This document shows, piece after piece, positions 19,485 to 35,326 of a stretch of DNA of 64,000 nt. The DNA lies in the NCBI GenBank assembly GCA_963989885.1, contig CAXDLF010000002.1, positions 2,433-66,432 on the forward strand, in the 5' to 3' direction. The stretch is from an uncultured Gammaproteobacteria bacterium (GTDB taxonomy: Bacteria > Pseudomonadota > Gammaproteobacteria > PS1 > Pseudothioglobaceae). Within the stretch, counting starts at the first letter, position 1. Each line of letters begins with the position of its first letter. A program made the position numbers and the translations under genes. The notes under the pieces are model-generated. The model saw nothing but the letters and a program-made list of their open reading frames with translations. It ran no database searches and was not told the origin of the DNA.

Positions 19485-20018
19485 CTAACTACGACCCTTG
19501 CTGGTGAATTCTTCCATAGTGTGAAGCATTGTTCTTAAGCTGTCTATGGTAGTTTCGAATTCATCACTCGTTAGGTCGGATACAGCAACATCTTCGATTT
19601 CATGATATTTTGAAAAGACTTTTTCCATAAGCTCTTCACCAGCCTTGTTGATTTGAACAACAACTCGTCTAGCGTCATTTGGATGAGCGAGTCTTTGACA
19701 AAAACCATGTTTTTCTAGCGTTATCAAAATTCCTGTCAATGTACTTTTTGCAATGCCAGCATTTTTAGCCAGTTTTGCGGTTTCAAGATCTCCCCAAACC
19801 CACAATACCCACATAACAACAAAGCCAGAAAAGGATAGATTAAATTCCTTGAAAACATGCTTTTCTGCATAACTCCTAATAATTGATGTAAGTCTGAAAG
19901 CGTTTGAAATAATTGAGACTGATCTTCCATATAGTCCAACTGAAATTAAGTGTTTCTTAGCTTTCTCTTCAGCACTTGTAGCTTTTGGAGGTGTTTTATT
20001 TATAGATTTATCCATCAA
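19485..20018 (-). CDS. MarR-family transcriptional regulator
   Basis: Winged-HTH segment ETAKLAKNAGIAKSTLTGILITLEKHGFCQRLAHPNDARRVVVQINKAGEEL. Length 177 aa. It starts 27 nt downstream of the ADC-family gene on the same strand. Confidence 0.85.
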   Translation of the reverse strand: MMDKSINKTPPKATSAEEKAKKHLISVGLYGRSVSIISNAFRLTSIIRSYAEKHVFKEFNLSFSGFVVMWVLWVWGDLETAKLAKNAGIAKSTLTGILITLEKHGFCQRLAHPNDARRVVVQINKAGEELMEKVFSKYHEIEDVAVSDLTSDEFETTIDSLRTMLHTMEEFTSKGRS

Positions 20019-20045
20019 TGATTCTTATTACATAGTTAATTGGAG

Positions 20046-20846
20046 TTATGTTAAATTCTTTCTATCAAGAGTTTGACCGCCCTTCCAAGACACACCAACT
20101 TGACGGTAATAGCCCTGAATTAGTTCCTCAGGTTCGAGCAAATGAAATTCCTCAACCGGTGAAGAGAACAATTCAAGTTCAAAGGAACCTTTGAAGGTAA
20201 GACCAATCTCGGCATCAAAACCTGACATTGTTACTACTTCATTCAAACTGTCTTTACCATCGCATTCAATTGCCGGCATCCATCGGTTGTGAAGCATTGG
20301 TAAGGCATTGACAAACCCCGCATGATCTGATTCTGCCTCAATAGTGAACTTGGCTTGAACTAAGCGATGATCATAAGCAGCTAGAGTAGCCCCAAAAACA
20401 CCTCCAGGCGCAAGTCGAGGCCCTGCTTTTCCTACAGTTGTCGACCTTGTCAAATGAATGGAGCCAATTTTTTTCGGATATCCCTGAAATTGACCACGAG
20501 CAGCAGAAAAATCCTTGTCCACCCAAATATATATACAACGTGAGTAGGTTTTTCCTTTATATTTACAACGAACAACAAAGAACACCTCTTTATATTGGGC
20601 ACGAACAGGGTCTAATAATTCGTTAAAGTTATCGCTACAACTTTGCCAATCTGCCCAGATAACAGCGACAGCTCCGGGATCTTCTTCAGCCAACTCAATT
20701 CCATCTGGCAAGAGTTCTTCTACACGGTCAGGATTAGTTCGATATTCTAAGGTTAATAAGTCTCCCGAATAGTGCCAAGGTACATTGGGAATTAATGAAG
20801 AATTACCAGTGTGAGTTCTAGGAAAAAGAAAACCATTTAAAGACAT
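20046..20846 (-). CDS. Acetoacetate decarboxylase (ADC) family enzyme
   Basis: ADC-family pattern PWHYSGDLLTLEYRTNPDRVEELLP and adjacent lysines in GYPKK, matching the Lys115/Lys116 pair of clostridial ADC (from memory). The ATG at 20846 is preferred over the TTG at 20912. Confidence 0.75.
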   Translation of the reverse strand: MSLNGFLFPRTHTGNSSLIPNVPWHYSGDLLTLEYRTNPDRVEELLPDGIELAEEDPGAVAVIWADWQSCSDNFNELLDPVRAQYKEVFFVVRCKYKGKTYSRCIYIWVDKDFSAARGQFQGYPKKIGSIHLTRSTTVGKAGPRLAPGGVFGATLAAYDHRLVQAKFTIEAESDHAGFVNALPMLHNRWMPAIECDGKDSLNEVVTMSGFDAEIGLTFKGSFELELFSSPVEEFHLLEPEELIQGYYRQVGVSWKGGQTLDRKNLT

Positions 20847-20886
20847 ATATTCAACTATTTCAATTAATGTTATAAATATATGATAC

Positions 20887-20902
20887 CATTCGGGAGCGAA
20901 TG
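20887..20902. promoter_or_regulatory. Candidate operator CATTCG-GGAG-CGAATG (TTCG-N4-CGAA class) in the divergent ADC-marR / FAH-P450 control region
   Basis: Perfect 6+6 inverted repeat with a 4-nt spacer. It shares arm sequence and spacing with the 14-mers at 27320, 32822 and 35269. It lies 41 nt upstream of the ADC ATG. Confidence 0.5.
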
Positions 20903-21007
20903 AAATTATCAAAATTTAAATATACACCTTTGAAATTAAGTCATAATTCATAAATCATCGTATATAATATATAATCATTCGTACCCAAACGAAATATAGG
21001 ATTAAGT

Positions 21008-21898
21008 ATGCCAACCAAAGAATATCGGAAAATACTATTAAATGGAGAATCGGTTCAAGTTACTGTAGAGGGAGATGAACTGGTTACTAAAGACGGAAAA
21101 ATTGTTGACATCGAAGAAGCGCATCATCTGCCACCAACTCAACCCTCGAAGATTATTTGTGTTCATTTAAACTACGAAAGTCGCGTAAAGGAATATATAA
21201 CCAAGCTACCACCGGCCCCAACATATTTTCACAAACCCATCACTGCACTCAATAGTCACAAAGGTGATGTTGTTAGACCTGAACGCTGCAAATGGCTAAA
21301 CTATGAAGGCGAGATTGCCATAGTTATTGGTCGAAATTGTCGTAATATAAGCCCTGCTGAGGCGGGATCATATATTGAAGGTTATACAATAGCTAATGAT
21401 TACGGTTTGCATGATTTTAGAGATACAGATGCAGGATCAATGCTTAGAGTTAAGGGTTCAGACACTCTGTGTCCAGTCGGACCAGGTTTAGTTACTGGCT
21501 GGAATTTCCATAACAAAGGAATTCGCACAATTGTTAATGGGAAGGTTATGCAAGATGCGAATACTAGCGAGATGGAGTGGGATATGCACTACCTTGTCGC
21601 CGATATAGCCCGTAATATTACTTTAACACCCGGAGACCTGCTACTTTCAGGAACACCTGCAAATAGTCGCCCTGTCCAACCAGGTGATGTTGTCGAAGTT
21701 GAGGTAGAAGGTTTAGGTGTTTTATCCAACACAATCGTTAATGGTGTGGCTATTCGTGATGATGTCGGTGCCCAACCTTCTAGCTCTGAAGAAGTTGTTT
21801 CTACTGCTATGGGTGGTGACTGGGAATTTCGTGGACAAAGGGCAGCAGGCGGACAGGGTGCGAAACATTATAAATCCGCCGTAGAAACCAAAAAGTAG
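21008..21898 (+). CDS. Fumarylacetoacetate hydrolase (FAH) family enzyme (HpaG/MhpD-like hydratase, isomerase or decarboxylase) with a C-terminal low-complexity tail
   Basis: KIICVHLNYESR, NYEGEIAIVIGRN, GYTIANDYGLHDF and LLLSGTPANSRPVQPGDVVEVEVEGLGVLSN. About 55 extra C-terminal residues are rich in G/A/S/Q. Confidence 0.85.
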   Translation: MPTKEYRKILLNGESVQVTVEGDELVTKDGKIVDIEEAHHLPPTQPSKIICVHLNYESRVKEYITKLPPAPTYFHKPITALNSHKGDVVRPERCKWLNYEGEIAIVIGRNCRNISPAEAGSYIEGYTIANDYGLHDFRDTDAGSMLRVKGSDTLCPVGPGLVTGWNFHNKGIRTIVNGKVMQDANTSEMEWDMHYLVADIARNITLTPGDLLLSGTPANSRPVQPGDVVEVEVEGLGVLSNTIVNGVAIRDDVGAQPSSSEEVVSTAMGGDWEFRGQRAAGGQGAKHYKSAVETKK

Positions 21899-21924
21899 TT
21901 GAATATTAACCTTCAGAAAAAACA

Positions 21925-23202
21925 ATGATCAAAACAGTCAGCCCAAATAACAATGACGATATAAATGCAGATATTACTAGTCACGATACTTTTGAAAAAG
22001 GCTTCCCACATATGGCATTTAAAAGGATGCGTGATGAAGATCCCTGTGCTTGGATAGTTGAAACCGATGGCGGAAGTGGTTTCTGGGCTGTTACACGATA
22101 CAAGGATATTAAAGAGGTTAATGGTTTACCGAAAATTTTTAGCTCAGCACAGGGTATTCGTCTAGAAGAACAATCGAAAGAAGAATTTGAAGCTCGCAAG
22201 ACTTTCCAAGAAACTGACCCACCAGTCCATACTCGACAACGTATGATGTTCCATCGTGGATTTACTCGTAAACTTATTTCAACTTATGAACCAATGATTC
22301 GTGATATTTGTAACGATATTATTAATAAAGCAGTTGATTTGGGTGAGGTCGATGCTACTAAAGAGATTGCTAGAAAATTACCAATGAGAATGTTAGGTCG
22401 CGTTGTTGGAACTCCTGATGAGGATGCCGAGTGGCTAGTTTCAAGAGGTGACTCAATGATTGCTAACAGTGATCCAGATTTTACTGACTATGTTATCGAC
22501 AAGGTTGATACAGATGAATATCGATTTTTACCTTTTCGTTCCCCTGCTGGCAAGGAAATTTATGATTACGGAGAAAAACAAAGGAGACTTCGTGAAGATC
22601 ATGATATGGGTGATGTGATGTCAATGTTATTGCAACCAAACAAGCAGGGAGACAGACTTTCAGACCTCGAATTTAAAAACTTCTTTGCGCTCATGGTGGC
22701 TGCAGGAAATGATACAACGCGGTATTCGATGGCTTTTTCAATGCATGCTATAGCTAATAATCCTTATATTTTTGACTGTCTAAAATCCGCACCTGATGAT
22801 GCGCCGGTTTGGGCTAGCGCTACCGAAGAGTTTATCAGATGGGCTTCACCAACTATGCACTTTAGACGCACCGCAACAGAGGATTATAAACTTCATGGAA
22901 AGCAGATCAGAAAGGGAGAAAAAGTCGCCATTTGGTTTACTTCTGGAAATTACGATGAGCGAAAGTTTCCGGACCCATTCAATCTTATTTTAGAGAGAGA
23001 AAATAATCAACATATTGCTTTTGGTCAGGGCGGTCCTCATGCATGCTTGGGTATGTGGCTTGCACGATTGGAAGTTCGTGTGGCTATGCAGGAACTCCTT
23101 AAAAGGGTTTCGAAAATTGAGCAAATTGGTCCCGAAAAATACTTGCGCTCCAATTTTATTCGGGGAATAAAAAACTTGCCTGTTAAGTTAACATCGGCAT
23201 AA
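21925..23202 (+). CDS. Cytochrome P450 (class I, ferredoxin-dependent)
   Basis: I-helix AAGNDTTR, ExxR (EEFIRW) and heme-thiolate loop FGQGGPHACLG. Length 425 aa. Confidence 0.95.
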   Translation: MIKTVSPNNNDDINADITSHDTFEKGFPHMAFKRMRDEDPCAWIVETDGGSGFWAVTRYKDIKEVNGLPKIFSSAQGIRLEEQSKEEFEARKTFQETDPPVHTRQRMMFHRGFTRKLISTYEPMIRDICNDIINKAVDLGEVDATKEIARKLPMRMLGRVVGTPDEDAEWLVSRGDSMIANSDPDFTDYVIDKVDTDEYRFLPFRSPAGKEIYDYGEKQRRLREDHDMGDVMSMLLQPNKQGDRLSDLEFKNFFALMVAAGNDTTRYSMAFSMHAIANNPYIFDCLKSAPDDAPVWASATEEFIRWASPTMHFRRTATEDYKLHGKQIRKGEKVAIWFTSGNYDERKFPDPFNLILERENNQHIAFGQGGPHACLGMWLARLEVRVAMQELLKRVSKIEQIGPEKYLRSNFIRGIKNLPVKLTSA

Positions 23203-23233
23203 TATGGGATTAAATAATTAATTAAGGAGAATC

Positions 23234-24520
23234 ATGAAAGATTACAGAAGAGTTCGAGTGCTATTCTCAGATCATTTGGGTTTGGCGAGAGGAAAATATC
23301 AACCCATAAATACTGCAACTGGTGGTGAGGCAAGGTTTTGTATTAGCCTTTACGGCCTTACCTATGACAAGCAGTTATTACCAGTACCTGGTAGCGGTTT
23401 ACTTGATGGCTTGCCTGATGTAGTTGCTAAATTCAAAGAAAAAGACGTTCGCCCCTCCTGGGAGGCTGATACGGGTGTCGTTATACCGGATATTGAATTT
23501 AAGGGAAAACCTTTGGCACATTGTGGACGCAATGTATTGAAAAAGACAATAGCTCAGCTTGAAGGAATGGGTTTAACACCATATGTCGGAATCGAATTAG
23601 AAGCCTATGTTTTTCAAAAAGATAGTTCCGGCAACTGGGTTCCATACAACACTCCAGGAGCATATGTCTATGGTACTGGTTCAACGGTTGATCCTGCGGG
23701 TCTGATTGACGAAGTTTGGGAACAAGCTGAAGCTTGCGGTATTGAGCTAGAATCATTCAATTCAGAGTTTGATTCACCGCAATTTGAATTGACTCTAAAG
23801 TATGACATGGCTCTGGAAGCGGTTGATCAGATATTTCTATTCAAAGTCATGGCAAAAGAGATTTTTGAACAGAATGGCTACTTATTAAGTTTTATGCCAA
23901 AACCTTTATCGAAAACTGGTGGCAGTGGAATGCATGTTAATTTTAGTTTCAATAATAAAAAAGGCAATAATGCCATTTATGATAAGTCTTCCAAAGATGG
24001 CTTGTCTGATATTGCAAAAAAGGCTATTTCTGGTCTTGTAAAACACCATGAAGGTATGTCAGCTTTACTTGCGCCAACAGTTAATTCTTATCGAAGATTG
24101 TTGCCTGCAAGTCTTTCAGGATATTGGGCAAATTGGGGTTACGACCATCGAGGAGTGACAACAAGAATACCTGATGAACGTGGCGCAGGCACAAGAATTG
24201 AATTTAGAATGGCTGATTGTGCTGCTAATCCATATACTGCAGTTGCAACAGTTCTTCAAGCTGCTAAGTTGGGTATAGAGAATAATTATGAATTGCCTGA
24301 CGCAGAAACTCTAGACTGCCTTGAATCTCAAAGCACAGATAGACATGTTCCAGACAACTTGGCTCTTGCCTTGGAGGCTTTAAATGCTGATAAAGTTCTA
24401 TGTCAAGCGGTAGGCCAAGAGCTGGTAGATAATCATACTGCTATCAAGGAGCAAGAGTGGCAAGATTATGCTGCTCATACAACAGACTGGGAATTTGATC
24501 AATACCTGAAATATATCTAG
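23234..24520 (+). CDS. Glutamine-synthetase-like gamma-glutamyl-amine ligase (GmaS/IpuC/PuuA-type)
   Basis: GS catalytic-domain motifs GSGMHVNFS and NSYRRL, plus RIEFRMADCAANPY. Length 428 aa. Strong AAGGAG RBS. Confidence 0.85.
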   Translation: MKDYRRVRVLFSDHLGLARGKYQPINTATGGEARFCISLYGLTYDKQLLPVPGSGLLDGLPDVVAKFKEKDVRPSWEADTGVVIPDIEFKGKPLAHCGRNVLKKTIAQLEGMGLTPYVGIELEAYVFQKDSSGNWVPYNTPGAYVYGTGSTVDPAGLIDEVWEQAEACGIELESFNSEFDSPQFELTLKYDMALEAVDQIFLFKVMAKEIFEQNGYLLSFMPKPLSKTGGSGMHVNFSFNNKKGNNAIYDKSSKDGLSDIAKKAISGLVKHHEGMSALLAPTVNSYRRLLPASLSGYWANWGYDHRGVTTRIPDERGAGTRIEFRMADCAANPYTAVATVLQAAKLGIENNYELPDAETLDCLESQSTDRHVPDNLALALEALNADKVLCQAVGQELVDNHTAIKEQEWQDYAAHTTDWEFDQYLKYI

Positions 24521-24529
24521 GATTGGGTG

Positions 24530-25993
24530 ATGTCAAATAGAATTTCCATAAAAGGTGTCAAGGTTTCTACAGATCACTATATTAATGGAAAGCGAGTTTC
24601 GTCCGATAAAAAATTTAGCGTCATCAATCCAAATAATCCTAGCGAGATTCTCGCTGAAGTGTCAAGAGGTGATGCAAAAATAGCTAAACTCGCAGTTTCT
24701 GCTGCTCGAGAAGGATTTAATGTTTGGTCAGAAATGAGTGTTGAGGAGCGTGCATTGATTATGCACAGGCTAGCCGATCTTATCGAGTCTAATATTGACG
24801 ATATTTCCCTTATTGAGTGCTTAGATATGGGTATGCGCCATGAAAGTCTAAGAAACCGAGTCATTCCACGGGGTGCTAGAAATTTTCGTTCGTATGCAGA
24901 TATTGCTAAAGAATATAAACCAAGGAAATGGCATTCAAATACTACCAAGAATGAAATCCAACGTATGCCTAGCGGGATTAGCGTCATTATTACTCCTTGG
25001 AACGCTCCATTTATGTTGTCTACATGGAAGTGTGCGCCCGCCCTCGCTGCAGGCAATAGTGTGATTTTGAAGCCAGCTGAATGGTCACCATTATCAGCAT
25101 CATTGTTGGCTGATTTGATTGATGAAGCATGTTTTCCAGCTGGAGTCTTTAATATTGTCCAAGGCATTGGTGAAGAAGTTGGAGCGTTGCTAGTATCAAA
25201 CCCAAATGTGAATCGTGTTTCATTTACTGGCTCCCCTGAGGCGGCACGCCATATCGGTAAATCGGCCGCTGAAAATATCACCCCATTCACTGGTGAGTTG
25301 GGTGGAAAAAGTCCATTAATCATCTTTCCAGATGCGGATCTAGAATCGGCTGTTGCAAAGGCAGTAGGACAGTTTGATGACTCCGGTCAGATTTGTCTTG
25401 CAGGAACTAGATTATTGGTACATTCATCCATAAAAAATGAATTTTTAAATCGCTTCTTAGAACTGACTGCCGAACAAAAATTAGGTGCAAGTTTTGATGA
25501 CGAAACTGAAATTACCCCGATGATCCATCCAGAACATCTTCAAAGTGTTGCTGGCTTTGTTGACCGAGCTAGAATCAATGGAGACAAGATTCTGTGCGGT
25601 GGAAAGGTTTTTAAAAATGGCAAATTGTGGTATGAGCCAACTTTAATTGAACCTGTTTCTAATCAATCTGAAGTGGTTCAAAAAGAAATTTTTGGTCCAG
25701 TTTTGACACTTCAAACATTCGACACTGAATCAGAAGCGATTGAATTGGCAAACAGTACAGAATACGGCCTTGCCGGAATGCTCTATACCAAGAATCGTGA
25801 CATCGCTGAACGAGTTGGACGAGCAATTCGTGCAGGCACGGTTTGGGTTAACTGTTTTCTTATTCGTGACCTGACAGCACCATTTGGTGGTTTTGGAATT
25901 AGTGGTATTGGTCGAGAAGGTGGTGATTATGGAATTGATTTTCATAGTGACTTAAAAACCTTTCAAATACTTGATGATTCTTTATCTGAATAG
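24530..25993 (+). CDS. NAD(P)-dependent aldehyde dehydrogenase (resembles the hydroxymuconic-semialdehyde DH / ALDH8 group)
   Basis: FTGELGGKSP with the catalytic Glu, catalytic Cys in GQICLAGTR, and the EIFGPV motif. IPRGARNFRSYA resembles the HMSADH-type motif (from memory). The GTG at 24527 is an alternative start. Confidence 0.9.
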   Translation: MSNRISIKGVKVSTDHYINGKRVSSDKKFSVINPNNPSEILAEVSRGDAKIAKLAVSAAREGFNVWSEMSVEERALIMHRLADLIESNIDDISLIECLDMGMRHESLRNRVIPRGARNFRSYADIAKEYKPRKWHSNTTKNEIQRMPSGISVIITPWNAPFMLSTWKCAPALAAGNSVILKPAEWSPLSASLLADLIDEACFPAGVFNIVQGIGEEVGALLVSNPNVNRVSFTGSPEAARHIGKSAAENITPFTGELGGKSPLIIFPDADLESAVAKAVGQFDDSGQICLAGTRLLVHSSIKNEFLNRFLELTAEQKLGASFDDETEITPMIHPEHLQSVAGFVDRARINGDKILCGGKVFKNGKLWYEPTLIEPVSNQSEVVQKEIFGPVLTLQTFDTESEAIELANSTEYGLAGMLYTKNRDIAERVGRAIRAGTVWVNCFLIRDLTAPFGGFGISGIGREGGDYGIDFHSDLKTFQILDDSLSE

Positions 25994-26020
25994 TATTTTT
26001 ATTTTATTAGGATGCAGTAA

Positions 26021-26350
26021 ATGACAACCGTCAAATATATATTAGAAGATGACTCTGAAGTCCTGATTGAAGCAGATGTAGGGCAAAATTTAATGCAATT
26101 GGCCCTTGATAATAATCTTGATGGTATTGAGGGCGCCTGTGGTGGTTCCTGTATGTGCGGCACTTGCCATGTTCTAATTGAATCGGTTAAAGGAAAACAG
26201 CTTAAAGAAAGAGATGAAATGGAAACAATAATAATAGAAATGGAAATCGATGAGCTTGCTCCTCCTAATAGTCGCTTGGGATGTCAGATTACTATAGATG
26301 AAGGGATGGAGTCAATCACGGCACGTATTGCCAATCTTAGTAATTTCTAA
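26021..26350 (+). CDS. Adrenodoxin/putidaredoxin-type 2Fe-2S ferredoxin
   Basis: Cys pattern C-x5-C-x2-C (GACGGSCMCGTCHV) plus a distal SRLGCQI. It is 109 aa, acidic, and the last gene of the P450 operon. Confidence 0.9.
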   Translation: MTTVKYILEDDSEVLIEADVGQNLMQLALDNNLDGIEGACGGSCMCGTCHVLIESVKGKQLKERDEMETIIIEMEIDELAPPNSRLGCQITIDEGMESITARIANLSNF

Positions 26351-26365
26351 TATCTGGTGTAATAT

Positions 26366-27238
26366 TTAAGTCCAGCCCTCAACAGGTTGGTCAAACCAAA
26401 GATGGACTTGACCGGTTCCTGTGGCGTTTTCGTAGTCACCAAACTGACGGCCTTTGGCTCGACAATTCACTCCACCAATCGCCTCTGCCATAATTAAGTA
26501 GTGTCCAAATTTACCTTCTGGAGCGTATTTTTTATATTCATCCATTCCCTCAAATACAGAACGATGGTCACCTTTTTTTAACCAAGCAATTCTCTTCTCA
26601 TCGGCCTTCCTTGCTTCTGGTGTAATGACGTGAATAGGGTCAGATGCTTCATGTTTCTCGAGCTCATCAAGTGGCCAAAACCTATGACTTAATCCTCCAC
26701 TTGCTAATAGTACTACACGCTTATCAAATTGCTCTATTGCTTCTTTCAAGCCCCTACCAACCTCCATAAAATGCTCTTTCTTAGCTGTACCACAAATACT
26801 CATTGAAAGCCACTGTTCATTACCTTGGAGATACTCAAGTAAATTAACAGTGGGATAATGTATTGGTAGGTGTTCATTGTCGTTGGCAGAGCAACGCACA
26901 CCATTTTCATTGACACGTTCTACAATATTATTTGCTAATTCAGGATTACCAGTTATATCGAATGGAATGCTGTTCATAGTCCGAGGTAACTCCTCCGATG
27001 TATAAAAACCTCGACGCCTTTGATGACTCGTGACAATGAATTCAACGATCGTAAACCAATGAGTATCAATAACAATAACAACATCGGGATTAAGTGGTTC
27101 TAAGATTTCACGTCGCATGTCTTGAAGACCGGTCACTAATGAGATTTCTTTGCCATCATTTAGAGCATATCGTTGCTCTTTAGACATCATAATTGTTGGT
27201 ACATGAGATACCAATCCAACCCCTACTATTTCACCCAA
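26366..27238 (-). CDS. Class III extradiol ring-cleavage dioxygenase (LigB family catalytic subunit)
   Basis: VGLVSHVPTIM N-terminus, DTHWF and SGGLSHRF (His-containing LigB motifs). The TTG start at 27238 is preceded by GGAG at 7 nt. The ORF-track ATG at 27271 adds a hydrophobic, non-conserved extension. Confidence 0.8.
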   Translation of the reverse strand: MGEIVGVGLVSHVPTIMMSKEQRYALNDGKEISLVTGLQDMRREILEPLNPDVVIVIDTHWFTIVEFIVTSHQRRRGFYTSEELPRTMNSIPFDITGNPELANNIVERVNENGVRCSANDNEHLPIHYPTVNLLEYLQGNEQWLSMSICGTAKKEHFMEVGRGLKEAIEQFDKRVVLLASGGLSHRFWPLDELEKHEASDPIHVITPEARKADEKRIAWLKKGDHRSVFEGMDEYKKYAPEGKFGHYLIMAEAIGGVNCRAKGRQFGDYENATGTGQVHLWFDQPVEGWT

Positions 27239-27319
27239 ATTTATTCTCCAAAAAAAAATCCAAAAAAACATTCTAACTACATCAACTTACTTCAACAAGG
27301 AATCAAAGAGCAAAAATTT

Positions 27320-27333
27320 GTTCGTATACGAAC
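27320..27333. promoter_or_regulatory. Candidate operator GTTCGTATACGAAC (perfect 14-bp palindrome) upstream of the LigB-type dioxygenase gene
   Basis: Perfect palindrome, identical to the 14-mer at 35269-35282. It lies 10 nt downstream of a candidate -10 element and 82 nt upstream of the TTG start. Confidence 0.6.
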
Positions 27334-27343
27334 GTTTTTAATC

Positions 27344-27372
27344 AATATACTATAACCTCAACTTTGAGTCAA
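27344..27372 (-). promoter_or_regulatory. Candidate sigma70 promoter of the dioxygenase gene (TTGACT-17 nt-TATATT on the minus strand)
   Basis: The reverse complement of 27367-27372 is TTGACT and that of 27344-27349 is TATATT. The spacer is exactly 17 nt. Confidence 0.45.
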
Positions 27373-27376
27373 GAAA

Positions 27377-28096
27377 CTAAGAGCAAAAAAACTCCATAAT
27401 CCACTGAGCCCAAATACTGGAATCAGATTTACCATTTTCAATACGTAGCCTAGCTTTTTGAAGTTCTTTTTCGGTTAACACTTTTTTAGTAACTTCAAGA
27501 AAGTTATACATTGCGCGTTTTGGTTGTTCTGGATGTCCCTGAAGACAAGCGATATTTTTACCAAGAGTATAGGCAAAGTCTGGATAGTCTTCAGTGCGAG
27601 CAAAACTTATTGCACTATCAGGTAATTTAGTCACCCTCTCTTTATTAAAATGATACAGGTCGGTAGTGTCTAATTTATTTTTCATCCAAGGAAATTTTTT
27701 ATTGATTTCTAGGGGGAAGCTCCCTATCATCCAGCCTTTTTCATTATTACCAACAACACCGCCAAAATGCTCTGCAATGAGTTGATGACCAAAACACACT
27801 CCAACGATCGGTTTATTTTTATTGTCTGCATGGCCCACAAATTCCGAAAGCATTTTTATCCAATCATAATTATCGTGAACACTAACTGGACTTCCTGTCA
27901 ATAAGTAGCCATCGTAACTCTCAATAATTTCAGGAAACTCGTATTCCGACACATAAAAAATATCAAATTTTGCATTGTCGTTTTCAGGCGCTAGCAAGTC
28001 AACAAATTTCTGACCGTCAGTAACACCATTATCATCACGCCAATGAAATTTCGGCACAGAATCAAGTATTGCAATTTTGATTGGCTGTTCGTTCAT
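27377..28096 (-). CDS. Class I glutamine amidotransferase-like protein (stand-alone; probable gamma-glutamyl-amide hydrolase)
   Basis: Nucleophile elbow GVCFGHQ and His-Glu in LQGHPE. Length 239 aa. Its ATG directly abuts the sulfatase TAG (TAGATG). Confidence 0.8.
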   Translation of the reverse strand: MNEQPIKIAILDSVPKFHWRDDNGVTDGQKFVDLLAPENDNAKFDIFYVSEYEFPEIIESYDGYLLTGSPVSVHDNYDWIKMLSEFVGHADNKNKPIVGVCFGHQLIAEHFGGVVGNNEKGWMIGSFPLEINKKFPWMKNKLDTTDLYHFNKERVTKLPDSAISFARTEDYPDFAYTLGKNIACLQGHPEQPKRAMYNFLEVTKKVLTEKELQKARLRIENGKSDSSIWAQWIMEFFCS

Positions 28097-29665
28097 CTAC
28101 CATCTACCAATAATAATTCCTGCCTTCTCGTCTGCTTCAGGCGAGCGTTTATAAAGCTCATCTAAATGAACCACGGTTCTTTGCTTTCTTTGTCTTAGCC
28201 AAGCAAATAATTGCTTTTCAAAGTCAGCTAAACACTTAGATTGGTCTGGATTTTCAGCGAGATCATTGAACTCATTAGGGTCATTCAACAAGTCAAACAA
28301 TTGTGCTCGAAAGCCTTCCCAATAAATATACTTCCAACGAGTATTTTTTATCATGTAGCCTCGACACTTGTAAGGGTGATGATCAAGGATTTGTCTAGCA
28401 CCACGATCGCTATAATCTATTTCGGCAAAAACCGTATCACGCCAAGCTGTGTTATCACCAAAAAGCAATGGGACAAGCGATCGACCCTCCATTCTATTAG
28501 ATGCATATGAACCTCCCATCGTTTCGACAAGGGTCGGCACTATATCAACTGATTCAGTCATTCTATTTTCAGAAGTTCCACGAAGATTTTCCGGCATTTC
28601 AGGCTCAACAATAATTAGTGGAATGCGAATTGAGGGCTCATGAAATAAATCCTTCTCACCAAGCCAATGATCACCAAGATAGTCGCCATGGTCGCTGGTA
28701 AAAATAATTAAAGTATTTCTACTTAAATTATTTTCATCTAAAAACGTTATAAGTCTACCAATATGATGGTCAATTTCACTTATCAGACCCATATAGGTTG
28801 GAATTACGTGTCTACGTTTTTTCTCGTCTGTGTAGTTTCGAGAATATTCAAGCTGCTGAAAAGCAGAAAAGACGGGGTGAGGATTTTTCTGCTCGATCTT
28901 ATCCTTAACAACCCCTACAACATCACTGTCTTTATACATTTTGTGGTACGGCGAGGGAGCAAGCAAAGGCCAATGAGGATTAAAATAACTCAAATGTAAA
29001 CACCATGGGGTATCCTTATTTCGAGTAGAAATATACTCCATTGCACGATTGGTTAGAAAAGCTGTTTCTGAATGCTGTGCTTCGATATCTGAAGGCAAAT
29101 GAGCATTCCTCATCTCCCAGCCGCTACATTTCAAACCAGACTTTTTAGTAGCAGTATTAGCTGCGTTTTCCCAAGGATTATGCATCTCATAGCCTTGAGA
29201 CAATAAATAATCGTTATAGCCAACTCCATCATAGACAATAGGCTCTGGATATAAACCTCCATAATGCTCAAAAGGGGTAAAACCATTGTCATGACGATTT
29301 AGAGCTATTTCAGAATCTAGTGGTACGTTCAGACGCGATAAGCCTTCTGTATTAGGACGTCCTTCGCTTTTACCTACAACATGCGCTTCAATACCCAACT
29401 CACGCATGTAATCACCCAAGGTAACTTCGTCGACTTTTATTGGGTCGTCATTAGCCATCACTCCGTGACTAGTCATATAACGACCAGTATAAAAACTTGC
29501 CCTGCTAGGACCGCACAGTGAGGCATTACAATAGCTGTTCTCAAACAACATACCTCGACTGGCAAGTTTATCAATATTCGGTGTGTTTATGCTGGGATGA
29601 CCAGTACAACCAAGATAATCATGCCTTAGCTGGTCACACATAATAAATAAGATATTTTTATTCAC
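28097..29665 (-). CDS. Cys-type sulfatase without a signal peptide (predicted cytoplasmic)
   Basis: NILFIMCDQL N-terminus directly at the start, formylglycine motif CGPSRASFYTGR, and SDHGD metal site. GTG start. Length 522 aa. Confidence 0.9.
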   Translation of the reverse strand: MNKNILFIMCDQLRHDYLGCTGHPSINTPNIDKLASRGMLFENSYCNASLCGPSRASFYTGRYMTSHGVMANDDPIKVDEVTLGDYMRELGIEAHVVGKSEGRPNTEGLSRLNVPLDSEIALNRHDNGFTPFEHYGGLYPEPIVYDGVGYNDYLLSQGYEMHNPWENAANTATKKSGLKCSGWEMRNAHLPSDIEAQHSETAFLTNRAMEYISTRNKDTPWCLHLSYFNPHWPLLAPSPYHKMYKDSDVVGVVKDKIEQKNPHPVFSAFQQLEYSRNYTDEKKRRHVIPTYMGLISEIDHHIGRLITFLDENNLSRNTLIIFTSDHGDYLGDHWLGEKDLFHEPSIRIPLIIVEPEMPENLRGTSENRMTESVDIVPTLVETMGGSYASNRMEGRSLVPLLFGDNTAWRDTVFAEIDYSDRGARQILDHHPYKCRGYMIKNTRWKYIYWEGFRAQLFDLLNDPNEFNDLAENPDQSKCLADFEKQLFAWLRQRKQRTVVHLDELYKRSPEADEKAGIIIGRW

Positions 29666-29679
29666 TCAATTAATGTAGA

Positions 29680-31161
29680 TTAGTTAGCTTGACTTCTGTA
29701 TTGGCGCCATATTGACCAAAAATGAATTAATAGTGCTATCACAATTATCGCAAAAATTATGCCTGAAATGGGTCTATTTATATAGTCAAATAAAGTATCG
29801 ATACGTGCCTGACTAGCACGAAACTTTAGTTCCATGATGTTACCTAATACCATTCCAAGAATGATTGGCACAATAGGTAGATTGAGTCGCTTTAAAGCAT
29901 AACCAAGTACACCAAAAACAGCACACATTATGCAATCAATCATAGAATTTCTTAGCGTATAAACACCAACAAATGAGAGTCCCAAAATTGAGGCACCCAA
30001 AAAACGCTGTGGTATCTGAATTATTTTGAGTAGAGATTTTGTAGCAATAAGCAAGAAAATTATCACAATAATATTAATTAAAATTAAACTTGCGTATAGT
30101 CCATACACAAAATCAATATGTTTTACAAACAAATCTGGGCCAGGAATGATGCTATGAACATAAAAAACTGATAGCATCATTGCTGTTAAAGCTTCGCCAG
30201 GAATACCAAGTGCTAAGAGTGGAATCATGGCTGCAGCTGGAACGGCATTATTGGCAGCTTCAGCGGCGATAATACCTTCTGGAGCCCCTTTACCAAATCT
30301 TTCAGGTTTGTCAGAAATGCCTCTGGCTATATTGTAAGAAAAAAATTGTGCTAGGAACTCACCTACACCAGGAATAATTCCCATTATCACTCCCATACCT
30401 GAAGAAATGAGAGCAATAGTTTTATATTTGATTAGATCGAATAAGCCTTCACTTTTTTTACCTTTTAAACTAGGCATTGAGACACGTTTATCTTTACCAA
30501 TAAGCAGTATGAAAGCCTGAGAAACCGCAAATAAACCGAGCAATACGGTAATTAAATCAAAGCCTGATAAGAGCCATGATTGGTCAAAAGTAAATCGCTT
30601 TGTATATCTGACATTTTCCATTCCGATGGTGCTTATAAACATTCCAAAAAAAACTAGCATTCCAGCTATTAGGGTTTGTTTTCTATGTGAGATAACAACC
30701 AATACCAATCCCAACAAGGCTGCCATCAGAATATCTCTAGAGCCAAACAGTGGAGCCACCTTGGCTATTAAAGATGTCATAAAAACAAGACTCATAATTG
30801 AGAAAATACCTCCAGTAAACGAAGACCAATAAGCCAGAGTGATGGCTCGCCTTGCTTTATTATCTTTCGTCATGCTGTAGCCATCATAAGTAGTCAATGC
30901 ATTGACGGGTGTACCAGGAGTATTAATCAAAATTGCTGGTATGGCGCCACCATACATTGCAGAACCATAAATACCCAATAGCACAGTAATACCAATAATT
31001 GGCTCCATACTGTAGGTTGCAGGAAGCAAAATAGCAATCGCCACGGCCGGCCCAACTCCTGGAATCGCGCCAATAATCACCCCACCTATTGAACCAACTA
31101 ATATAGCTACCCAGACATCCCATCTAAGGAATATGTCAAAACTTGAAAGAATTAAGTCCAT
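29680..31161 (-). CDS. tctA: Tripartite tricarboxylate transporter large permease TctA
   Basis: 493 aa and about 12 TM helices. It has TctA-type repeated GxIPGVG motifs (GAIPGVGPAVAIA; GIIPGVGEFLAQF). Confidence 0.9.
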   Translation of the reverse strand: MDLILSSFDIFLRWDVWVAILVGSIGGVIIGAIPGVGPAVAIAILLPATYSMEPIIGITVLLGIYGSAMYGGAIPAILINTPGTPVNALTTYDGYSMTKDNKARRAITLAYWSSFTGGIFSIMSLVFMTSLIAKVAPLFGSRDILMAALLGLVLVVISHRKQTLIAGMLVFFGMFISTIGMENVRYTKRFTFDQSWLLSGFDLITVLLGLFAVSQAFILLIGKDKRVSMPSLKGKKSEGLFDLIKYKTIALISSGMGVIMGIIPGVGEFLAQFFSYNIARGISDKPERFGKGAPEGIIAAEAANNAVPAAAMIPLLALGIPGEALTAMMLSVFYVHSIIPGPDLFVKHIDFVYGLYASLILINIIVIIFLLIATKSLLKIIQIPQRFLGASILGLSFVGVYTLRNSMIDCIMCAVFGVLGYALKRLNLPIVPIILGMVLGNIMELKFRASQARIDTLFDYINRPISGIIFAIIVIALLIHFWSIWRQYRSQAN

Positions 31162-31168
31162 GAATTAA

Positions 31169-31696
31169 TCAAAAATAAACCATAAAAAATGTTGCCCAAC
31201 CATCTGGAAGATAATCATAAATTGCGCCACTGGGTATCTTTACTTGTAATAAAGATTTAAATACAACCACAATTCCAAATCCCGTCACTAAACTAACCCA
31301 GAACATGGAAAGAGTTCGATAACCTGATCTAATGGTCAGTAGCGAGAAAAACAATAAGGTCGAAAGTAAATAGCCTACTAAGGGAACAAACCAAACATAC
31401 AATACAAAATAAAAAACAAACTCTAAAGTTCTTGACCAGGATGATAATTCATTTAATTCACCCTGAACCTGGCCTAGTTGCAATTTATAACTTCGCCAGA
31501 TCTGCATACTATAAAGCAAACCGAACAGAGCCATTCCGACTAGACAAAATGTGGGCCAAAGCCTTGGTTGTTTAACTAATGGGACGCCATCAAACCACTT
31601 TGTTTCAAAGGGAATTGATACTAGTAAAACCAATACAATAAGAAGCATCAGAATTACAAAGACTAAATCACCTGCTTGGTATTCTTCTTTACCCAT
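31169..31696 (-). CDS. tctB: Tripartite tricarboxylate transporter small subunit TctB
   Basis: 175 aa with four hydrophobic helices. It sits between tctC and tctA, so the assignment rests mostly on context. Confidence 0.65.
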   Translation of the reverse strand: MGKEEYQAGDLVFVILMLLIVLVLLVSIPFETKWFDGVPLVKQPRLWPTFCLVGMALFGLLYSMQIWRSYKLQLGQVQGELNELSSWSRTLEFVFYFVLYVWFVPLVGYLLSTLLFFSLLTIRSGYRTLSMFWVSLVTGFGIVVVFKSLLQVKIPSGAIYDYLPDGWATFFMVYF

Positions 31697-31734
31697 AAAG
31701 ATCTATAAAATTATGATTACTTTACATTTTATAT

Positions 31735-31764
31735 AAAAAAAAGGAAGGTTAATTAACCTTCCTT
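31735..31764 (-). terminator. Intra-operon rho-independent terminator/attenuator between tctC and tctB
   Basis: Perfect palindrome AAGGAAGGTTAATTAACCTTCCTT (31741-31764), followed on the minus strand by a T tract (A run 31735-31740 on plus). Confidence 0.55.
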
Positions 31765-31785
31765 TTCTTTGTAGTTTTGTCTCTA

Positions 31786-32724
31786 CTAAAGACTACCAAT
31801 AGTAGCCATAGTCGCCCTGTCTTTATTGATTTGTGCAGTTGAAGCATCAGCATCCATCCAGTAGATTAATGCACCGCTGTTGGCCGCGACTTCTTGCGCC
31901 CTATCACTTAGCATTGATTTCTTGGCAACAGCAATAATCTTATCTTTAACATCCTGTGGTGTGCCTTCTCCGACAAATAAGCCGTTCCATAAAAATATAT
32001 CTAACTCAGGTATCAATTCACCAATTGCTGGTGTGTTCGGTACCTTAGATATACGCTCATTTGTTATAGAAACCAAAACTTTAACATCATTTAAGCATGG
32101 CAGGATTAGCTGAATCGTTGTATTAATAACGTCTGCATCACCTGAAGCTAAAGTATTACAGTCCAGCATATCAAAGGCAGCGTCCGAACCCCATTCGAAG
32201 CCATATATCTTAGCTGCAGCTTTGGTCACCTGGGTTGGTGCCAGTGGGTCACCAAAGTGACCTAGCGTTACCTTGTTACTTTTAGCATGATAAGCTAATT
32301 GTTGAAATGAACTATATGGAGCATCGCCTGCTACAGCTATCACAAATGGATAGGTTAGGAAAATCCCTAGAGGCTCGAAAGTGTCTTCAGTCAAACCTTC
32401 TATTCCAAGATTTGGTCCTACAACCGGTACACCGATTACAAATGAACCTACCATGGAACCATCAGGATCTGCTGCCGCTACTTCCATCGCACCAGGGAAT
32501 GGACCACCGCCACCGCCTGGTTTATTAACAACCGCTGCTGCAACACCATATTCAGCCTGAAAGTCTTCTGCAATCATCCTGGTTAAAACATCTTCAAGAT
32601 CACCAGGAGGCCATGGCACAACAAAAGTCACAGGTTTATCAGGATAATCAGCCTGTGCAATTGGCATACCTACCATAAAAGCTGAAAGTGCAAAAAGCAC
32701 TCCAATCAAAGTTTTTTTCATCAT
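31786..32724 (-). CDS. tctC: Tripartite tricarboxylate transporter periplasmic substrate-binding protein (TctC/Bug family)
   Basis: Signal peptide ending AQA, followed by DYPDKPVTFVVPWPPG and VVNKPGGGG (Bug-family N-terminal pattern). Length 312 aa. Confidence 0.85.
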   Translation of the reverse strand: MMKKTLIGVLFALSAFMVGMPIAQADYPDKPVTFVVPWPPGDLEDVLTRMIAEDFQAEYGVAAAVVNKPGGGGGPFPGAMEVAAADPDGSMVGSFVIGVPVVGPNLGIEGLTEDTFEPLGIFLTYPFVIAVAGDAPYSSFQQLAYHAKSNKVTLGHFGDPLAPTQVTKAAAKIYGFEWGSDAAFDMLDCNTLASGDADVINTTIQLILPCLNDVKVLVSITNERISKVPNTPAIGELIPELDIFLWNGLFVGEGTPQDVKDKIIAVAKKSMLSDRAQEVAANSGALIYWMDADASTAQINKDRATMATIGSL

Positions 32725-32821
32725 TTATCTCCTTTTTTAAGTTAATTCCATTATAAAAAAACGTCTCAAAATAACCGATAGATTATTCTTTCTTAACTCA
32801 ATTAGGTTGCACTAAAGAGAC

Positions 32822-32835
32822 GTTCGTATACAAAC
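32822..32835. promoter_or_regulatory. Candidate operator GTTCGTATACAAAC (one mismatch to the 14-bp palindrome) upstream of tctC
   Basis: 13/14 identical to the sites at 27320 and 35269. It lies 6 nt downstream of a candidate -10 element and 98 nt upstream of the tctC ATG. Confidence 0.55.
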
Positions 32836-32841
32836 AATCCA

Positions 32842-32870
32842 AATATAACATAATACTTTTAAATAATCAA
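32842..32870 (-). promoter_or_regulatory. Candidate sigma70 promoter of the tctCBA-sulfatase-GATase operon (TTGATT-17 nt-TATATT on the minus strand)
   Basis: The reverse complement of 32865-32870 is TTGATT and that of 32842-32847 is TATATT. The spacer is exactly 17 nt. Confidence 0.45.
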
Positions 32871-32963
32871 TTTATTCAATTTAAATTTACAAAGCTTTTT
32901 TCAATAATCAAGAACGTAATCTAGTTCTCTCAAGATAATAAACTGGCGTCGCTACAATTTTAG

Positions 32964-35117
32964 CTAATGGTATGGTTTAACCAATAAAGTTTCAGCATCA
33001 AGTTGATAATCCTTTTCTGTCGCATTTATTAAACGACGTTCACGAATGAATGGCTTATGTTGGTCGGGGTTATCCGCATCAAATTCTCTTGCAAGACGAG
33101 TTCCAGAAAAAGTTGCCTGTGCAATTACGTTTGGCGTGTGAGCGTCACCGATTAAATGTATAGACTTAATTCCAGCATTGGACATTTCATCAGGCGATCC
33201 TTGTAGTTGATCATATAAATCACAATTAGAAGTTCTGTGCGTGACTAACATAACACTATCGTATTCAACAGTCATTTCCTCACCTTTCCATATATCCACA
33301 AGGGTTGCATTTCCATTTTCAACAGCTACTGCGACATGCTGATGAATCGTTTTAACACCGAGTTCAAGAAGTCTCATTAACATTCGTTGCTCTTCCAAAA
33401 CTAGGCGGAGGTATGGGCCAACGGTTTCTCCATAAGTAGCGTAAGTTACTTCATGACCGTTTTCTGCAATAAGTTCCGCCATAGCAGAACCCATATAATA
33501 TGGATCATTGTCGATTACTAATACTCTTTTTCCGAGTTTTTTCCCATATACACAATACTGTTCTGGAGTAGTAATTTCTGGTTTTGAAGCGTCAGCTCCA
33601 GCTATATAATCATGAAGCGGTGATGACATACCCGTTTCGTCCCAATTAGAACCGGTTGCGAAAACAATGCGCTCAGCTCCACATTCAAGAACATCTTTAT
33701 AATTAAGCCGATTATTTAAGATAATTTGTACATTGGTTTTTGTTCTAATTTGAGTTTCCCGCCAATCAATAACTCTCTTCCAAGCCCCAAAATTAGGCAG
33801 TTTAGAAACCCAACGTAAATGACCACCTATTTCAGCTTCAGCTTCAATTAAATGAACGGTATTATAACCACGAAGACCAAGAGTCATAGCACACTCAAGT
33901 CCAGCAGGCCCTGCCCCAACAACAACAATTGGAAGATCAGGATTGTTTGTTGGAACATATTTTTCAGGATGCCAACCTCTACGATATTCTTCACCGGAGG
34001 TTGGATTTTGAGTGCACCAAATTGGCGGCCCACCTTTTTCCCATCGAGAAACACAAATGTTGCAACCAATACACTCTCGGATATCATTGTATCGACCTTC
34101 CTCTATTTTTTTTGGTAAAAATGGATCAGAAATTGATGGACGAGCTGCCCCAATAATATCGCACTGGCCAGAATTTATTACTTTGATCATAATCTCAGGA
34201 TCTGTAAATCGACCAACATTTATAACCGGTTTTTTGGAAGCTTTTTTTGCATGATGGGTATACTGTGCTTGATGGTTTGAATCAAAGAATCGGGAAGATC
34301 CCGCATCCTCTCCCCAATTAAGAGTACCAATATTTATATCCCAATAGTCAACCAAATCATCCATTGCTTTGATGAAGGCTATACCCTCATCTTCAGCTTT
34401 TATACCTAAATCTCCAAAACCAAAAGGTTCAGATAACGTATCAATTGGAAAACGAATTCCAATTGCACAGTCATCAATTTCCTCTCTCATCATCTCTAAC
34501 AATTCTCGAGTAAAACGACATCGGTTTTCAAAGGAACCGCCGTATTCGTCAGTACGTTTGTTGTGATAACGGTACAAGAAATTCTGGGGTATTGTCGAAA
34601 GACCAACATAAACAGTCAGCAAATCAAAACCTGCTGCTCTTGCTCTTAAAGCTCCATCCACATGTTCACGTTGTATTTGTCGAATTTCTTTAATTGTCAT
34701 TGCCCTGGCACTTGCCATAGGTTCAAATTCATGTGGTATTTGCGAGGGTGCTCGAGTTGGTTCACGGGTTTCTGCATTCAGGCCAAAGGTAGTAGCATGG
34801 GTAAGTTCCACTCCAGCAAGACCACCATGAGCGTGGATACTATCGCACATCAAAGATAAATTCCTAACGTCACCTTCATCAATAATCTTACTTCCAACCC
34901 ATGGATGAATATCACTATCATGCGTTATAAAACAAACTTCCGTAAAAACTGCTCCCCAACCACCTTCAGCTTTCATTCCTCGAAAAGATGCCTGCATTCC
35001 TGGTTTGTCTGATCCAGCTCCATTACAGTGAGGCACTTGCCAGAATCGGTTTTTAAGAACTTTCGGACCAAGTTTGATTGGTTCAAAAAGAATATCGTGA
35101 CGTTTTTCTCTAGCCAT
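32964..35117 (-). CDS. Trimethylamine/dimethylamine/histamine dehydrogenase family iron-sulfur flavoprotein
   Basis: The N-terminus HDILFEPIKLGPKVLKNRFWQVPHC carries the Cys that forms 6-S-cysteinyl-FMN in TMADH. The 4Fe-4S motif CIGCNICVSRWEKGGPPIWC and ADP-binding VVGAGPAGLE are present. Length 717 aa. AGGAGG RBS. Confidence 0.9.
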   Translation of the reverse strand: MAREKRHDILFEPIKLGPKVLKNRFWQVPHCNGAGSDKPGMQASFRGMKAEGGWGAVFTEVCFITHDSDIHPWVGSKIIDEGDVRNLSLMCDSIHAHGGLAGVELTHATTFGLNAETREPTRAPSQIPHEFEPMASARAMTIKEIRQIQREHVDGALRARAAGFDLLTVYVGLSTIPQNFLYRYHNKRTDEYGGSFENRCRFTRELLEMMREEIDDCAIGIRFPIDTLSEPFGFGDLGIKAEDEGIAFIKAMDDLVDYWDINIGTLNWGEDAGSSRFFDSNHQAQYTHHAKKASKKPVINVGRFTDPEIMIKVINSGQCDIIGAARPSISDPFLPKKIEEGRYNDIRECIGCNICVSRWEKGGPPIWCTQNPTSGEEYRRGWHPEKYVPTNNPDLPIVVVGAGPAGLECAMTLGLRGYNTVHLIEAEAEIGGHLRWVSKLPNFGAWKRVIDWRETQIRTKTNVQIILNNRLNYKDVLECGAERIVFATGSNWDETGMSSPLHDYIAGADASKPEITTPEQYCVYGKKLGKRVLVIDNDPYYMGSAMAELIAENGHEVTYATYGETVGPYLRLVLEEQRMLMRLLELGVKTIHQHVAVAVENGNATLVDIWKGEEMTVEYDSVMLVTHRTSNCDLYDQLQGSPDEMSNAGIKSIHLIGDAHTPNVIAQATFSGTRLAREFDADNPDQHKPFIRERRLINATEKDYQLDAETLLVKPYH

Positions 35118-35268
35118 GCTAGACCTCCTATTTTTTTAAAGTTATGTGGCCGTCAATTGAGGGCTTTATATTAATATAAACAACTCCAATATTCAACAAC
35201 AAACTTTCTTGACTAATTAACACCTCATTAAATTGATTATTTAAGTGGATTATGATATTCTGTAACTT

Positions 35269-35282
35269 GTTCGTATACGAAC
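35269..35282. promoter_or_regulatory. Candidate operator GTTCGTATACGAAC (perfect 14-bp palindrome) upstream of the TMADH-family gene
   Basis: Identical to 27320-27333. A TATAGT hexamer (reverse complement of 35281-35286) overlaps its edge. It lies 152 nt upstream of the ATG. Confidence 0.6.
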
Positions 35283-35326
35283 TATATTCAGATCGTTAAT
35301 TTACAATTAGTATTGCTTCTCTCTAT

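Follow-up and report, generated by a model that had tools for sequence, protein, structure and literature searches.

MarR-family regulators are winged-helix homodimers in which Lys/Arg contacts from the recognition helix read a short palindrome or pseudo-palindrome, and they are autoregulatory (see PMC12541388). Among the described systems, HpaR of Yersinia pseudotuberculosis offers the nearest comparison for the present locus. It is a MarR-family repressor of the homoprotocatechuate (hpa-meta) operon that binds two TTAA-N4-TTAA sites (4-bp arms at 4-bp spacing) in its promoter region, one of which lies over the -10 element (PMC7180172). HpaR of E. coli W has likewise been characterised (operator cited through PMC7180172). 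No paper on the regulon or gene cluster described below was found in the literature. We analysed a 64-kb stretch of DNA from an uncultured gammaproteobacterium (contig CAXDLF010000002.1; the whole stretch is called the window), which carries a catabolic island between miaA and murD (19485-35117). Short palindromes with TTCG/CGAA arms stand at the promoters of this island, and they are very probably the operators of a MarR-family (HpaR-like) repressor encoded in the island itself, which would control the breakdown of aromatic compounds, binding being predicted from the sequence.

The locus resembles the HpaR system in that a putative MarR-family repressor accompanies extradiol ring-cleavage genes of the HpaD/HpaE/HpaG type. 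The operators may also act in a comparable manner by analogy, as inverted 4-bp arms stand at 4-bp spacing, sites overlap or abut the -10 element, and repression is predicted here. In contrast, the arms are TTCG/CGAA in the window and TTAA/TTAA in the HpaR sites, and the window regulon would add a P450/GS-like/GATase module, an ADC-fold enzyme, a TTT transporter and a sulfatase. The relationship was further evaluated using profile models. The island regulator scored 52.7 bits with the Pfam MarR model (PF01047; cut-off 24.6), which places it in the MarR family, whereas its score with the HpaR equivalog model TIGR02337 was 47.7 bits against a cut-off of 121.2, although HpaR was still its best-scoring NCBIfam model. 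The window LigB, ALDH and FAH proteins likewise had HpaD_Fe, HpaE and HpaG-C, respectively, as their best NCBIfam models and remained far below the equivalog cut-offs of these (142 of 316, 478 of 638 and 197 of 276 bits). HpaF, HpaH and HpaI are absent from the island, and an ADC-fold enzyme, which resembles MppR in the NCBIfam comparison, is present instead. Judged from its sequence, the system would therefore work like HpaR, given the shared arm-4-arm geometry and the placement at the -10 element, but it is not an HpaR equivalog.

In addition, 37 MarR-family structures matched the window MarR at E <= 1e-3. The best solved relative was Tm0710 (2a61; E = 5e-12), and no close solved homologue was found among the matches. 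Compared with E. coli MarR/marO and the A. baumannii HpaR-DNA complex (PDB 7EL3), the MarR domain is shared and MarR-family structures are the closest, but the operator sequence differs from that of E. coli MarR/marO in being peculiar to the subfamily of the window MarR. This subfamily is marked by a FxVxWVLWVWG...ET motif and a GIAKSTLTG helix. Moreover, the recognition helix (GI(A/S)K(S/G)TLTG, or G(I/V)(A/S)KSTLTG in the comparison with the paralogue P0045) and the wing D-x-R were conserved in all homologues that are accompanied by sites.

A preliminary description of this DNA had quoted four palindromes, and all four sequences were found at the coordinates it gave. The palindrome GTTCGTATACGAAC occurred exactly at 27320-27333 and 35269-35282, and a copy with one mismatch, GTTCGTATACAAAC, was found at 32822-32835. 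With up to two mismatches permitted, these were three matches in the window against 0.06 expected, and none of 100 shuffled sequences gave three; with three mismatches, one extra match only appeared, in a coding region and at chance level. The remaining 49 kb of the window contained no exact copy of the 14-mer, and in Thioglobus-clade DNA exact copies were confined to promoters of the island. The looser pattern TTCG-N4-CGAA gave four matches against 0.67 expected, with one of 100 shuffles also reaching four, and one of the matches, at 54608, is unrelated. On its own, the fourth quoted site (20889-20900) therefore counts as weak evidence. Counts of TTCG-N4-CGAA over all loci were uninformative in high-GC DNA.

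Alignment of the sites suggested that the palindromes belong to a longer element, an 18-bp pseudo-palindrome TCRTTYGK-NN-MCRAAYGA composed of two 8-bp half-sites at fixed spacing. The TTCG-N4-CGAA pattern and the 14-mer, by which the preliminary description had defined the motif, are the best-conserved portion and the core of this 18-mer, respectively. Thus, the Thioglobus 14-mer GTTCGT-AT-ACGAAC corresponds to the inner 14 columns (nnGTTCGT-AT-ACGAACnn), and the fourth site aligns as cCATTCGG-GA-GCGAATGa; in Dermacoccus, the site at 8238 of L040 has an identical core, TTCGGGAGCGAA. Variation is seen in the central 4 nt (TATA, TGTA, TACA, GGAG and ACCC), while the TTCG/CGAA arms stay conserved. 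Five island sites were assigned to the 18-mer, including one that had been overlooked (operator A, TCATTCGTACCCAAACGA on the plus strand). The earlier view of one palindrome in front of every transcription unit therefore requires a correction: the four quoted sites are real, and the divergent ADC/FAH region carries two sites instead of one. Similarly, not every promoter-sized intergenic region contains a site, as no site stands in the 89 bp that separate tctC from tctB.

The position of the operators relative to predicted sigma70-type promoters was next evaluated. The hexamers quoted earlier and their distances to the palindromes (10 nt, 6 nt and an edge overlap) were correct; the overlap concerns TATAGT (35286-35281, minus strand) at the palindrome of 35269-35282. 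Measured to the 18-mer, the gap from the predicted -10 element, promoters being taken as consensus matches, was 0 nt for FAH, 1 nt for ADC, 8 nt for LigB and 4 nt for tctC. The first base of operator A is also the final base of the -10 hexamer of FAH, and 15 nt separate the operator from the FAH ATG. The ADC gene likely starts at the ATG listed in Table 1, and therefore the fourth site (operator B) is intergenic. The gene marR follows ADC after a 27-bp gap and is probably co-transcribed with it. Gene calls for MarR, ADC, FAH, P450, GS-like, ALDH, Fdx, LigB, GATase, sulfatase, TctABC and the OYE/TMADH-like protein agreed with Pfam, and Pfam also confirmed that MarR is the sole regulator among the 14 island genes.

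The conservation of the sites was assessed in six related loci (L001-L005 and L045) of the SUP05/Arctic96BD-19 clade, which were obtained by a LigB protein scan (LigB identity 77-95%); the scan also placed the window itself in this clade (Candidatus Thioglobus). In all six, the island lies between miaA and murD and marR stands after ADC. The 14-mer or a variant with one mismatch (GTTCGTGTACGAAC, GTTCGTACACGAAC) was present about 50 bp 5' of LigB in six of six relatives. The five loci that extend over the tctC region all carried it 5' of tctC as well. At the latter position, L002, L003 and L005 have a perfect copy of the 14-mer, and in L045 two 18-mers (TCGTTTGTACACGAAACA, TCGTTCGTACACGAACTA) stand in tandem. 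Alignments of the LigB and tctC promoters showed an invariant -35 element, -10 element and palindrome within surroundings that had diverged or contained indels, and the LigB operator was unchanged together with its -35 and -10 elements in seven genomes. The distance between the LigB -10 element and the palindrome was 0 nt in the more distant relatives L004, L005 and L045, in contrast to 10 nt in the window; a 10-bp insertion, equal to one helical turn, occupies 27334-27343 in the window clade. In the divergent ADC/FAH region, operator A was the best-conserved element of the alignment, being present in every Thioglobus locus and twice in L005 and L045. Operator B was kept in L001-L003, and L005 and L045 have an A-type copy in place of the GGAG version. 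Presence of the motif in orthologous loci, a check proposed in the preliminary description, was thus confirmed for orthologous promoters in six Thioglobus-clade genomes whose flanking sequences have diverged.

Furthermore, the association between the motif and MarR extended to other phyla. The enzyme core (P450, GS-like, ALDH, LigB, FAH and ADC) was found in several actinobacteria together with a marR homologue. In actinobacterial as well as other loci, ADC is followed by the MarR orthologue, directly so in L038, L042 and L043. A TCGT-N10-ACGA palindrome recurs in the intergenic DNA of the actinobacterial loci, including immediately 5' of marR (L036, 7022; L037, 13229), and near-identical operator A sites stand 5' of FAH in the Acidimicrobiales loci L038 and L043. 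The actinobacterial consensus is TCGTWYGG-NN-CCRWACGA. With a matrix built from 10 actinobacterial sites and no Thioglobus sites, the five highest-scoring matches in the window were the island sites, all of them inside about 0.7 kb of island intergenic DNA, with operator A first (21.0 bits), operator B second (13.4 bits) and the remaining three at 10.9, 10.2 and 9.6 bits; the next match scored 8.5 bits.

Reciprocally, a matrix built from Thioglobus sites only gave, at a threshold of >=12 bits, 18 matches in 119 kb of marR-containing actinobacterial loci (15 per 100 kb) compared with 14 matches in 613 kb of marR-less Novosphingobium-type loci (2.3 per 100 kb). The actinobacterial matches stood in front of P450, ALDH, FAH, ADC and marR. 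A protein search for distant homologues added six further MarR contexts of 12-20 kb each. In five of these (MarR identity 41-51%), the best match scored 18.1-21.6 bits, a score reached by 0-1 of 300 shuffles, and lay either between the divergent FAH and ADC-marR units or 27 bp 5' of a P450-GS-like-Fdx operon. In contrast, none of the 28 marR-less Novosphingobium loci with the same enzymes reached 18 bits. The autoregulatory position 5' of ADC-marR was also occupied in L036, L037 and L053-L056. The 18-mer therefore travels with MarR orthologues, which supports the island MarR as the candidate regulator, and the reading of the sites as repressor operators of one regulon gains comparative support from the six Thioglobus genomes and from other phyla.

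The uncharacterised pairs from Acidimicrobiales, Marmoricola, Dermacoccus, Jatrophihabitans and metagenomes share the ADC-marR/FAH/LigB/ALDH/P450/GS-like neighbourhood with the window, and their 18-bp operator stands at the same promoters as in the window. They differ in carrying the full 18-mer with a G/C-rich centre, whereas Thioglobus has an A/T-centred 14-bp core at LigB and tctC and has added the transporter, sulfatase and GATase genes.

The loci of Novosphingobium and relatives (L006-L035, L044 and L046-L048) contain the same enzyme core without marR. They were rejected as orthologous islands because they share the enzymes but lack both marR and the motif, and they served as the negative control. 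Their FAH is 74-81% identical to the gammaproteobacterial FAH, which suggests horizontal transfer. Other intergenic motifs are conserved in them: TTGGCCGCTGCGGCCAA lies in the FAH-ADC interval, and GGACTTGGCAtaaccGGACAGA, which looks like a sigma54-type -24/-12 element, in the P450-LigB interval.

In the proposed mechanism, a MarR dimer would bind each operator. Because the four operators begin 0-10 nt after the -10 element of a sigma70-type promoter, the bound dimer would cover the transcription start, and it would block open-complex formation or promoter escape. Four units would be repressed: FAH-P450-GSlike-ALDH-Fdx, ADC-marR (by autoregulation), LigB and tctCBA-sulfatase-GATase. An aromatic substrate or a pathway intermediate would then release the repressor. 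We infer repression rather than activation, and the transcription starts and the effector class named here are likewise putative.

Several points weigh against this reading. The regulon is predicted from sequence alone, and the scan of the source genome covers 64 kb only. The outer TC/GA of the 18-mer is missing from the 14-mers, which score 9.6-10.9 bits with the actinobacterial matrix, within reach of the best matches of shuffled windows (mean best 13.0 bits). These scores are not exceptional, and the 14-mers were assigned by their location, perfect symmetry and conservation, not by score. In addition, the actinobacterial training sites (TCGT-N10-ACGA) were picked with the window motif as a guide, although their inner columns were unselected. 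With respect to the TMADH-like gene, the 35269 copy does not occupy a repressor position, and the locus of a close MarR paralogue, P0045 (L049), has neither the canonical 18-mer nor the 14-mer nearby.

The paralogue P0045, the one exception among the six further contexts, is 55% identical to the window MarR and is encoded by a stand-alone gene on low-GC contigs (L049/L050, 10001-10570). Its neighbours are EamA, ETF, Fe-S oxidoreductase, TMADH-like and GcvT genes, and at 9715-9742 there is a longer palindrome, TCGATTGCGGCCCCGGGCACCAAATCGA. Its helix reads GLANSTITG, in which the invariant recognition-helix lysine is replaced by asparagine. Since this lysine is replaced and no site was found, P0045 may have an altered specificity, and its sequence fits a specificity variant.

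The best-surviving alternative is that the 14-mers are bound by another regulator encoded outside the island (of the GntR, IclR or TetR type, or a second MarR), and that the island MarR binds only the two 18-mers of the divergent region. The missing outer TC/GA and the lower scores of the 14-mers relative to the divergent-region sites are compatible with this, as are the 55%-identical paralogue in related low-GC contigs and a TetR gene beside TMADH in L003 and L045. However, the 14-mer and the core of the 18-mer can be aligned column by column, and the tctC promoter of L045 provides intermediates between the two forms, in which the outer TC is kept, including in TCGTTCGTACACGAACTA. The 14-mers persist in loci without tetR (the window, L001, L002 and L005), the locus of P0045 has neither form of the site, and the marR-less Novosphingobium clusters have quite different motifs. 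Moreover, the island contains no GntR or IclR gene. The GntR-type operator suggested in the preliminary description has no support in particular, as no GntR domain is encoded in the island, and its GT-N-AC core fails to explain the conservation, the centre being variable and the TTCG/CGAA arms conserved. Taken together, a second regulator is unlikely, and the 14-mers are better read as operators of the island MarR.

An element acting at the RNA level, either a small 5'-terminal stem-loop with a stabilising effect on the mRNA or a weak bidirectional terminator between operons, is very improbable. A terminator scan flagged 27319-27334 on both strands (a 5-6 bp stem followed by a T-run), and the C-to-T change at 32832 leaves a G-U pair in the transcribed strand. 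However, the stems are only 5 bp, their folding energies lie between -4.8 and -8.0 kcal/mol (z-scores -1.0 to -2.9), and the T-run is absent at two of the three sites, being present only at the 27320 copy. An intrinsic terminator needs a G+C-rich stem and a U-run and was rejected on these grounds. Furthermore, the sequence of loop and arms is conserved and no compensatory changes were seen, the 18-mers and the actinobacterial sites share half-sites but no common hairpin, and the sites co-vary with the presence of marR.

The least probable alternative, that the copies represent a small repeat or mobile element, or resemble one another by chance, and play no part in regulation, could draw on the inverted duplication of a promoter-operator module and on an iteron-like tandem array with the same 14-mer in L080, but it scarcely fits the restriction of exact Thioglobus-clade copies to island promoters, the confinement of conservation to 14-18 bp plus the promoter hexamers, or the metagenome matches, since among the 80 stretches listed only L107 has two copies (an island copy with the same spacing) and the others are single matches in unrelated DNA; these matches carry no information on density across the genome. 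The L080 array (positions 1-270 of the marine metagenome contig Ga0098052_1095373) consists of about 30-bp tandem units with TTCGTTAGCGAA and ACGTATACGAAC and ends in an exact 14-mer. It lies 5' of small unknown ORFs with no island genes nearby, and it is probably the origin of a phage or plasmid, with no relation to the island.

Table 1. Positions of the predicted operators, promoters and genes in the window
Feature	Position	Strand	Basis or remark
marR, MarR-family (HpaR-like), proposed repressor	19485..20018	-	Pfam 52.7 bits; HpaR best NCBIfam model
ADC-family gene (MppR-like)	20046..20846	-	likely start ATG at 20846
Operator B, CCATTCGG-GA-GCGAATGA	20886..20903	.	1 nt 3' of ADC-marR -10; autoregulatory position
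Predicted ADC-marR promoter, TTCAAA-18-GATAAT	20905..20934	-	9/12 consensus matches
Predicted FAH-P450-GSlike-ALDH-Fdx promoter, TTCATA-17-TATAAT	20947..20975	+	10/12 matches, joint best in island
Operator A, TCATTCGT-AC-CCAAACGA	20975..20992	.	overlooked in the preliminary description
FAH-P450-GS-like-ALDH-ferredoxin operon	21008..26350	+	gaps 6-31 bp
LigB-family extradiol dioxygenase (HpaD-like)	26366..27271	-	start codon uncertain
LigB operator, core 27320-27333 GTTCGTATACGAAC	27318..27335	.	sequence scan and actinobacterial matrix
LigB promoter, TTGACT-17-TATATT	27344..27372	-	then 10 nt, then palindrome
tctC-tctB-tctA-sulfatase-GATase operon	27377..32724	-	gene calls, Pfam
tctC operator, core 32822-32835 GTTCGTATACAAAC	32820..32837	.	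sequence scan and actinobacterial matrix
tctCBA-sulfatase-GATase promoter, TTGATT-17-(TGt)TATATT	32842..32870	-	then 6 nt, then palindrome
TMADH-like OYE flavoprotein gene	32964..35117	-	Pfam; regulon membership doubtful
TetR-type palindrome relic, CCGTCAATTGAGGG	35150..35163	.	TMADH promoter region; perfect CCGTCAATTGACGG in L003
Inverted, diverged copy of tctC promoter-operator module	35229..35284	+	alignment with tctC

The preliminary description had also assigned the 35269 palindrome to the TMADH-like gene. The palindrome is present, but it lies about 110 bp 5' of the likely TMADH start site and belongs to the inverted tctC module, which consists of TTGATT (35233-38), 17 nt, (TGa)TATTCT (35256-61), 7 nt and the 14-mer (35269-82). 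The stretch 35229-35282 aligned with 32822-32874 over 30 nt at 87% identity in opposite orientation, and the module points to the 3' end of murD, away from TMADH. BLAST of the TMADH-upstream region against the related loci matched the palindrome only; explicit alignment revealed homology between the DNA just 5' of TMADH and the tetR-TMADH region. The TetR-type relic lies about 35 bp 5' of the TMADH ATG, just 3' of a weak promoter match. Because the 35269 copy sits in an inverted module facing murD and TMADH has its own promoter with a TetR-type relic, regulation of TMADH by MarR through this site is uncertain. The inverted copy is probably a relic that drives no gene now, and it is possibly an antisense promoter into murD.

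The surroundings of TMADH vary among the relatives. L003 (298-942 and 3256-4362) and L045 (335-982 and 3292-4398) have a divergent tetR gene and a gcvT-like gene 3' of TMADH, and in both the TetR-type palindrome stands between TMADH and tetR; the window has lost the two genes and has kept the operator-like relic. TMADH is absent in L005, and in L001 and L002 it directly follows the end of murD after a 19-bp gap with no palindrome. In L045, TMADH is 95% identical, compared with 72-88% for its neighbour genes, and from these identities it looks recently exchanged. L045 also contains a 128-nt inverted copy (124-251 versus 4405-4532, 89% complementary) that drives a leftward gene. The product of this gene starts with MSRIKKFMNLGKV... 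and has a signal peptide, and it is probably another binding protein.

Two further observations concern the LigB and tctC units. The LigB ATG at 27271 (MFFWIFFW..., region 27240-27271) is not conserved in L001 or L003; LigB orthologues begin near residue 11-12 (..GEIVG), and the window has no canonical start codon there. The tctC-tctB gap contains a strong hairpin with a 12-bp stem, AAAAGGAAGGTTAATTAACCTTCCTTTT, at 31739-31766. As an attenuator or stabiliser within the operon, this hairpin could raise expression of the binding protein relative to the membrane subunits.

The gene content of the island comprises three parts. The first is a compact homoprotocatechuate-type meta-cleavage set made up of LigB (HpaD-like), ALDH (HpaE-like), FAH (HpaG-like) and the MppR-like ADC-fold enzyme, which perhaps replaces the hydratase/aldolase. 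GS-like protein, P450, ferredoxin and a GATase-type hydrolase form the second, an Ipu-like gamma-glutamylation module, and the third consists of an arylsulfatase-like enzyme and the TTT transporter. At a guess, the substrate of the pathway is an aromatic amine or a sulfated aromatic. More tentatively, and with considerable doubt, we speculate that the MarR-operator pair marks a horizontally spread and uncharacterised pathway that combines homoprotocatechuate-type cleavage with the Ipu-like module, and that the regulon grew in the marine Arctic96BD-19/SUP05 heterotrophs as a portable promoter-operator cassette of about 57 bp was copied in front of the acquired TTT/arylsulfatase/GATase genes and of the L045 binding protein, with its operator shortened to 14 bp.

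The system is an uncharacterised example of a standard MarR repressor system; it introduces no new principle, and the gain lies in annotation and experimental leverage. The analysis yielded five predicted operators, a half-site consensus, a predicted cognate repressor and its recognition helix, and thereby a testable regulon for an uncharacterised catabolic island in the very abundant marine Thioglobus/Arctic96BD-19 clade, in which regulators are few and only a small number of members have been cultured. The occurrence of the MarR-operator pair in Actinobacteria and other phyla offers culturable hosts in which the effector, and hence the substrate, may be reached. If the tentative reading of a spread pathway and a copied cassette is right, the sites could help to identify this substrate, perhaps an aromatic amine or sulfated aromatic from phytoplankton, and could also serve as a biosensor.

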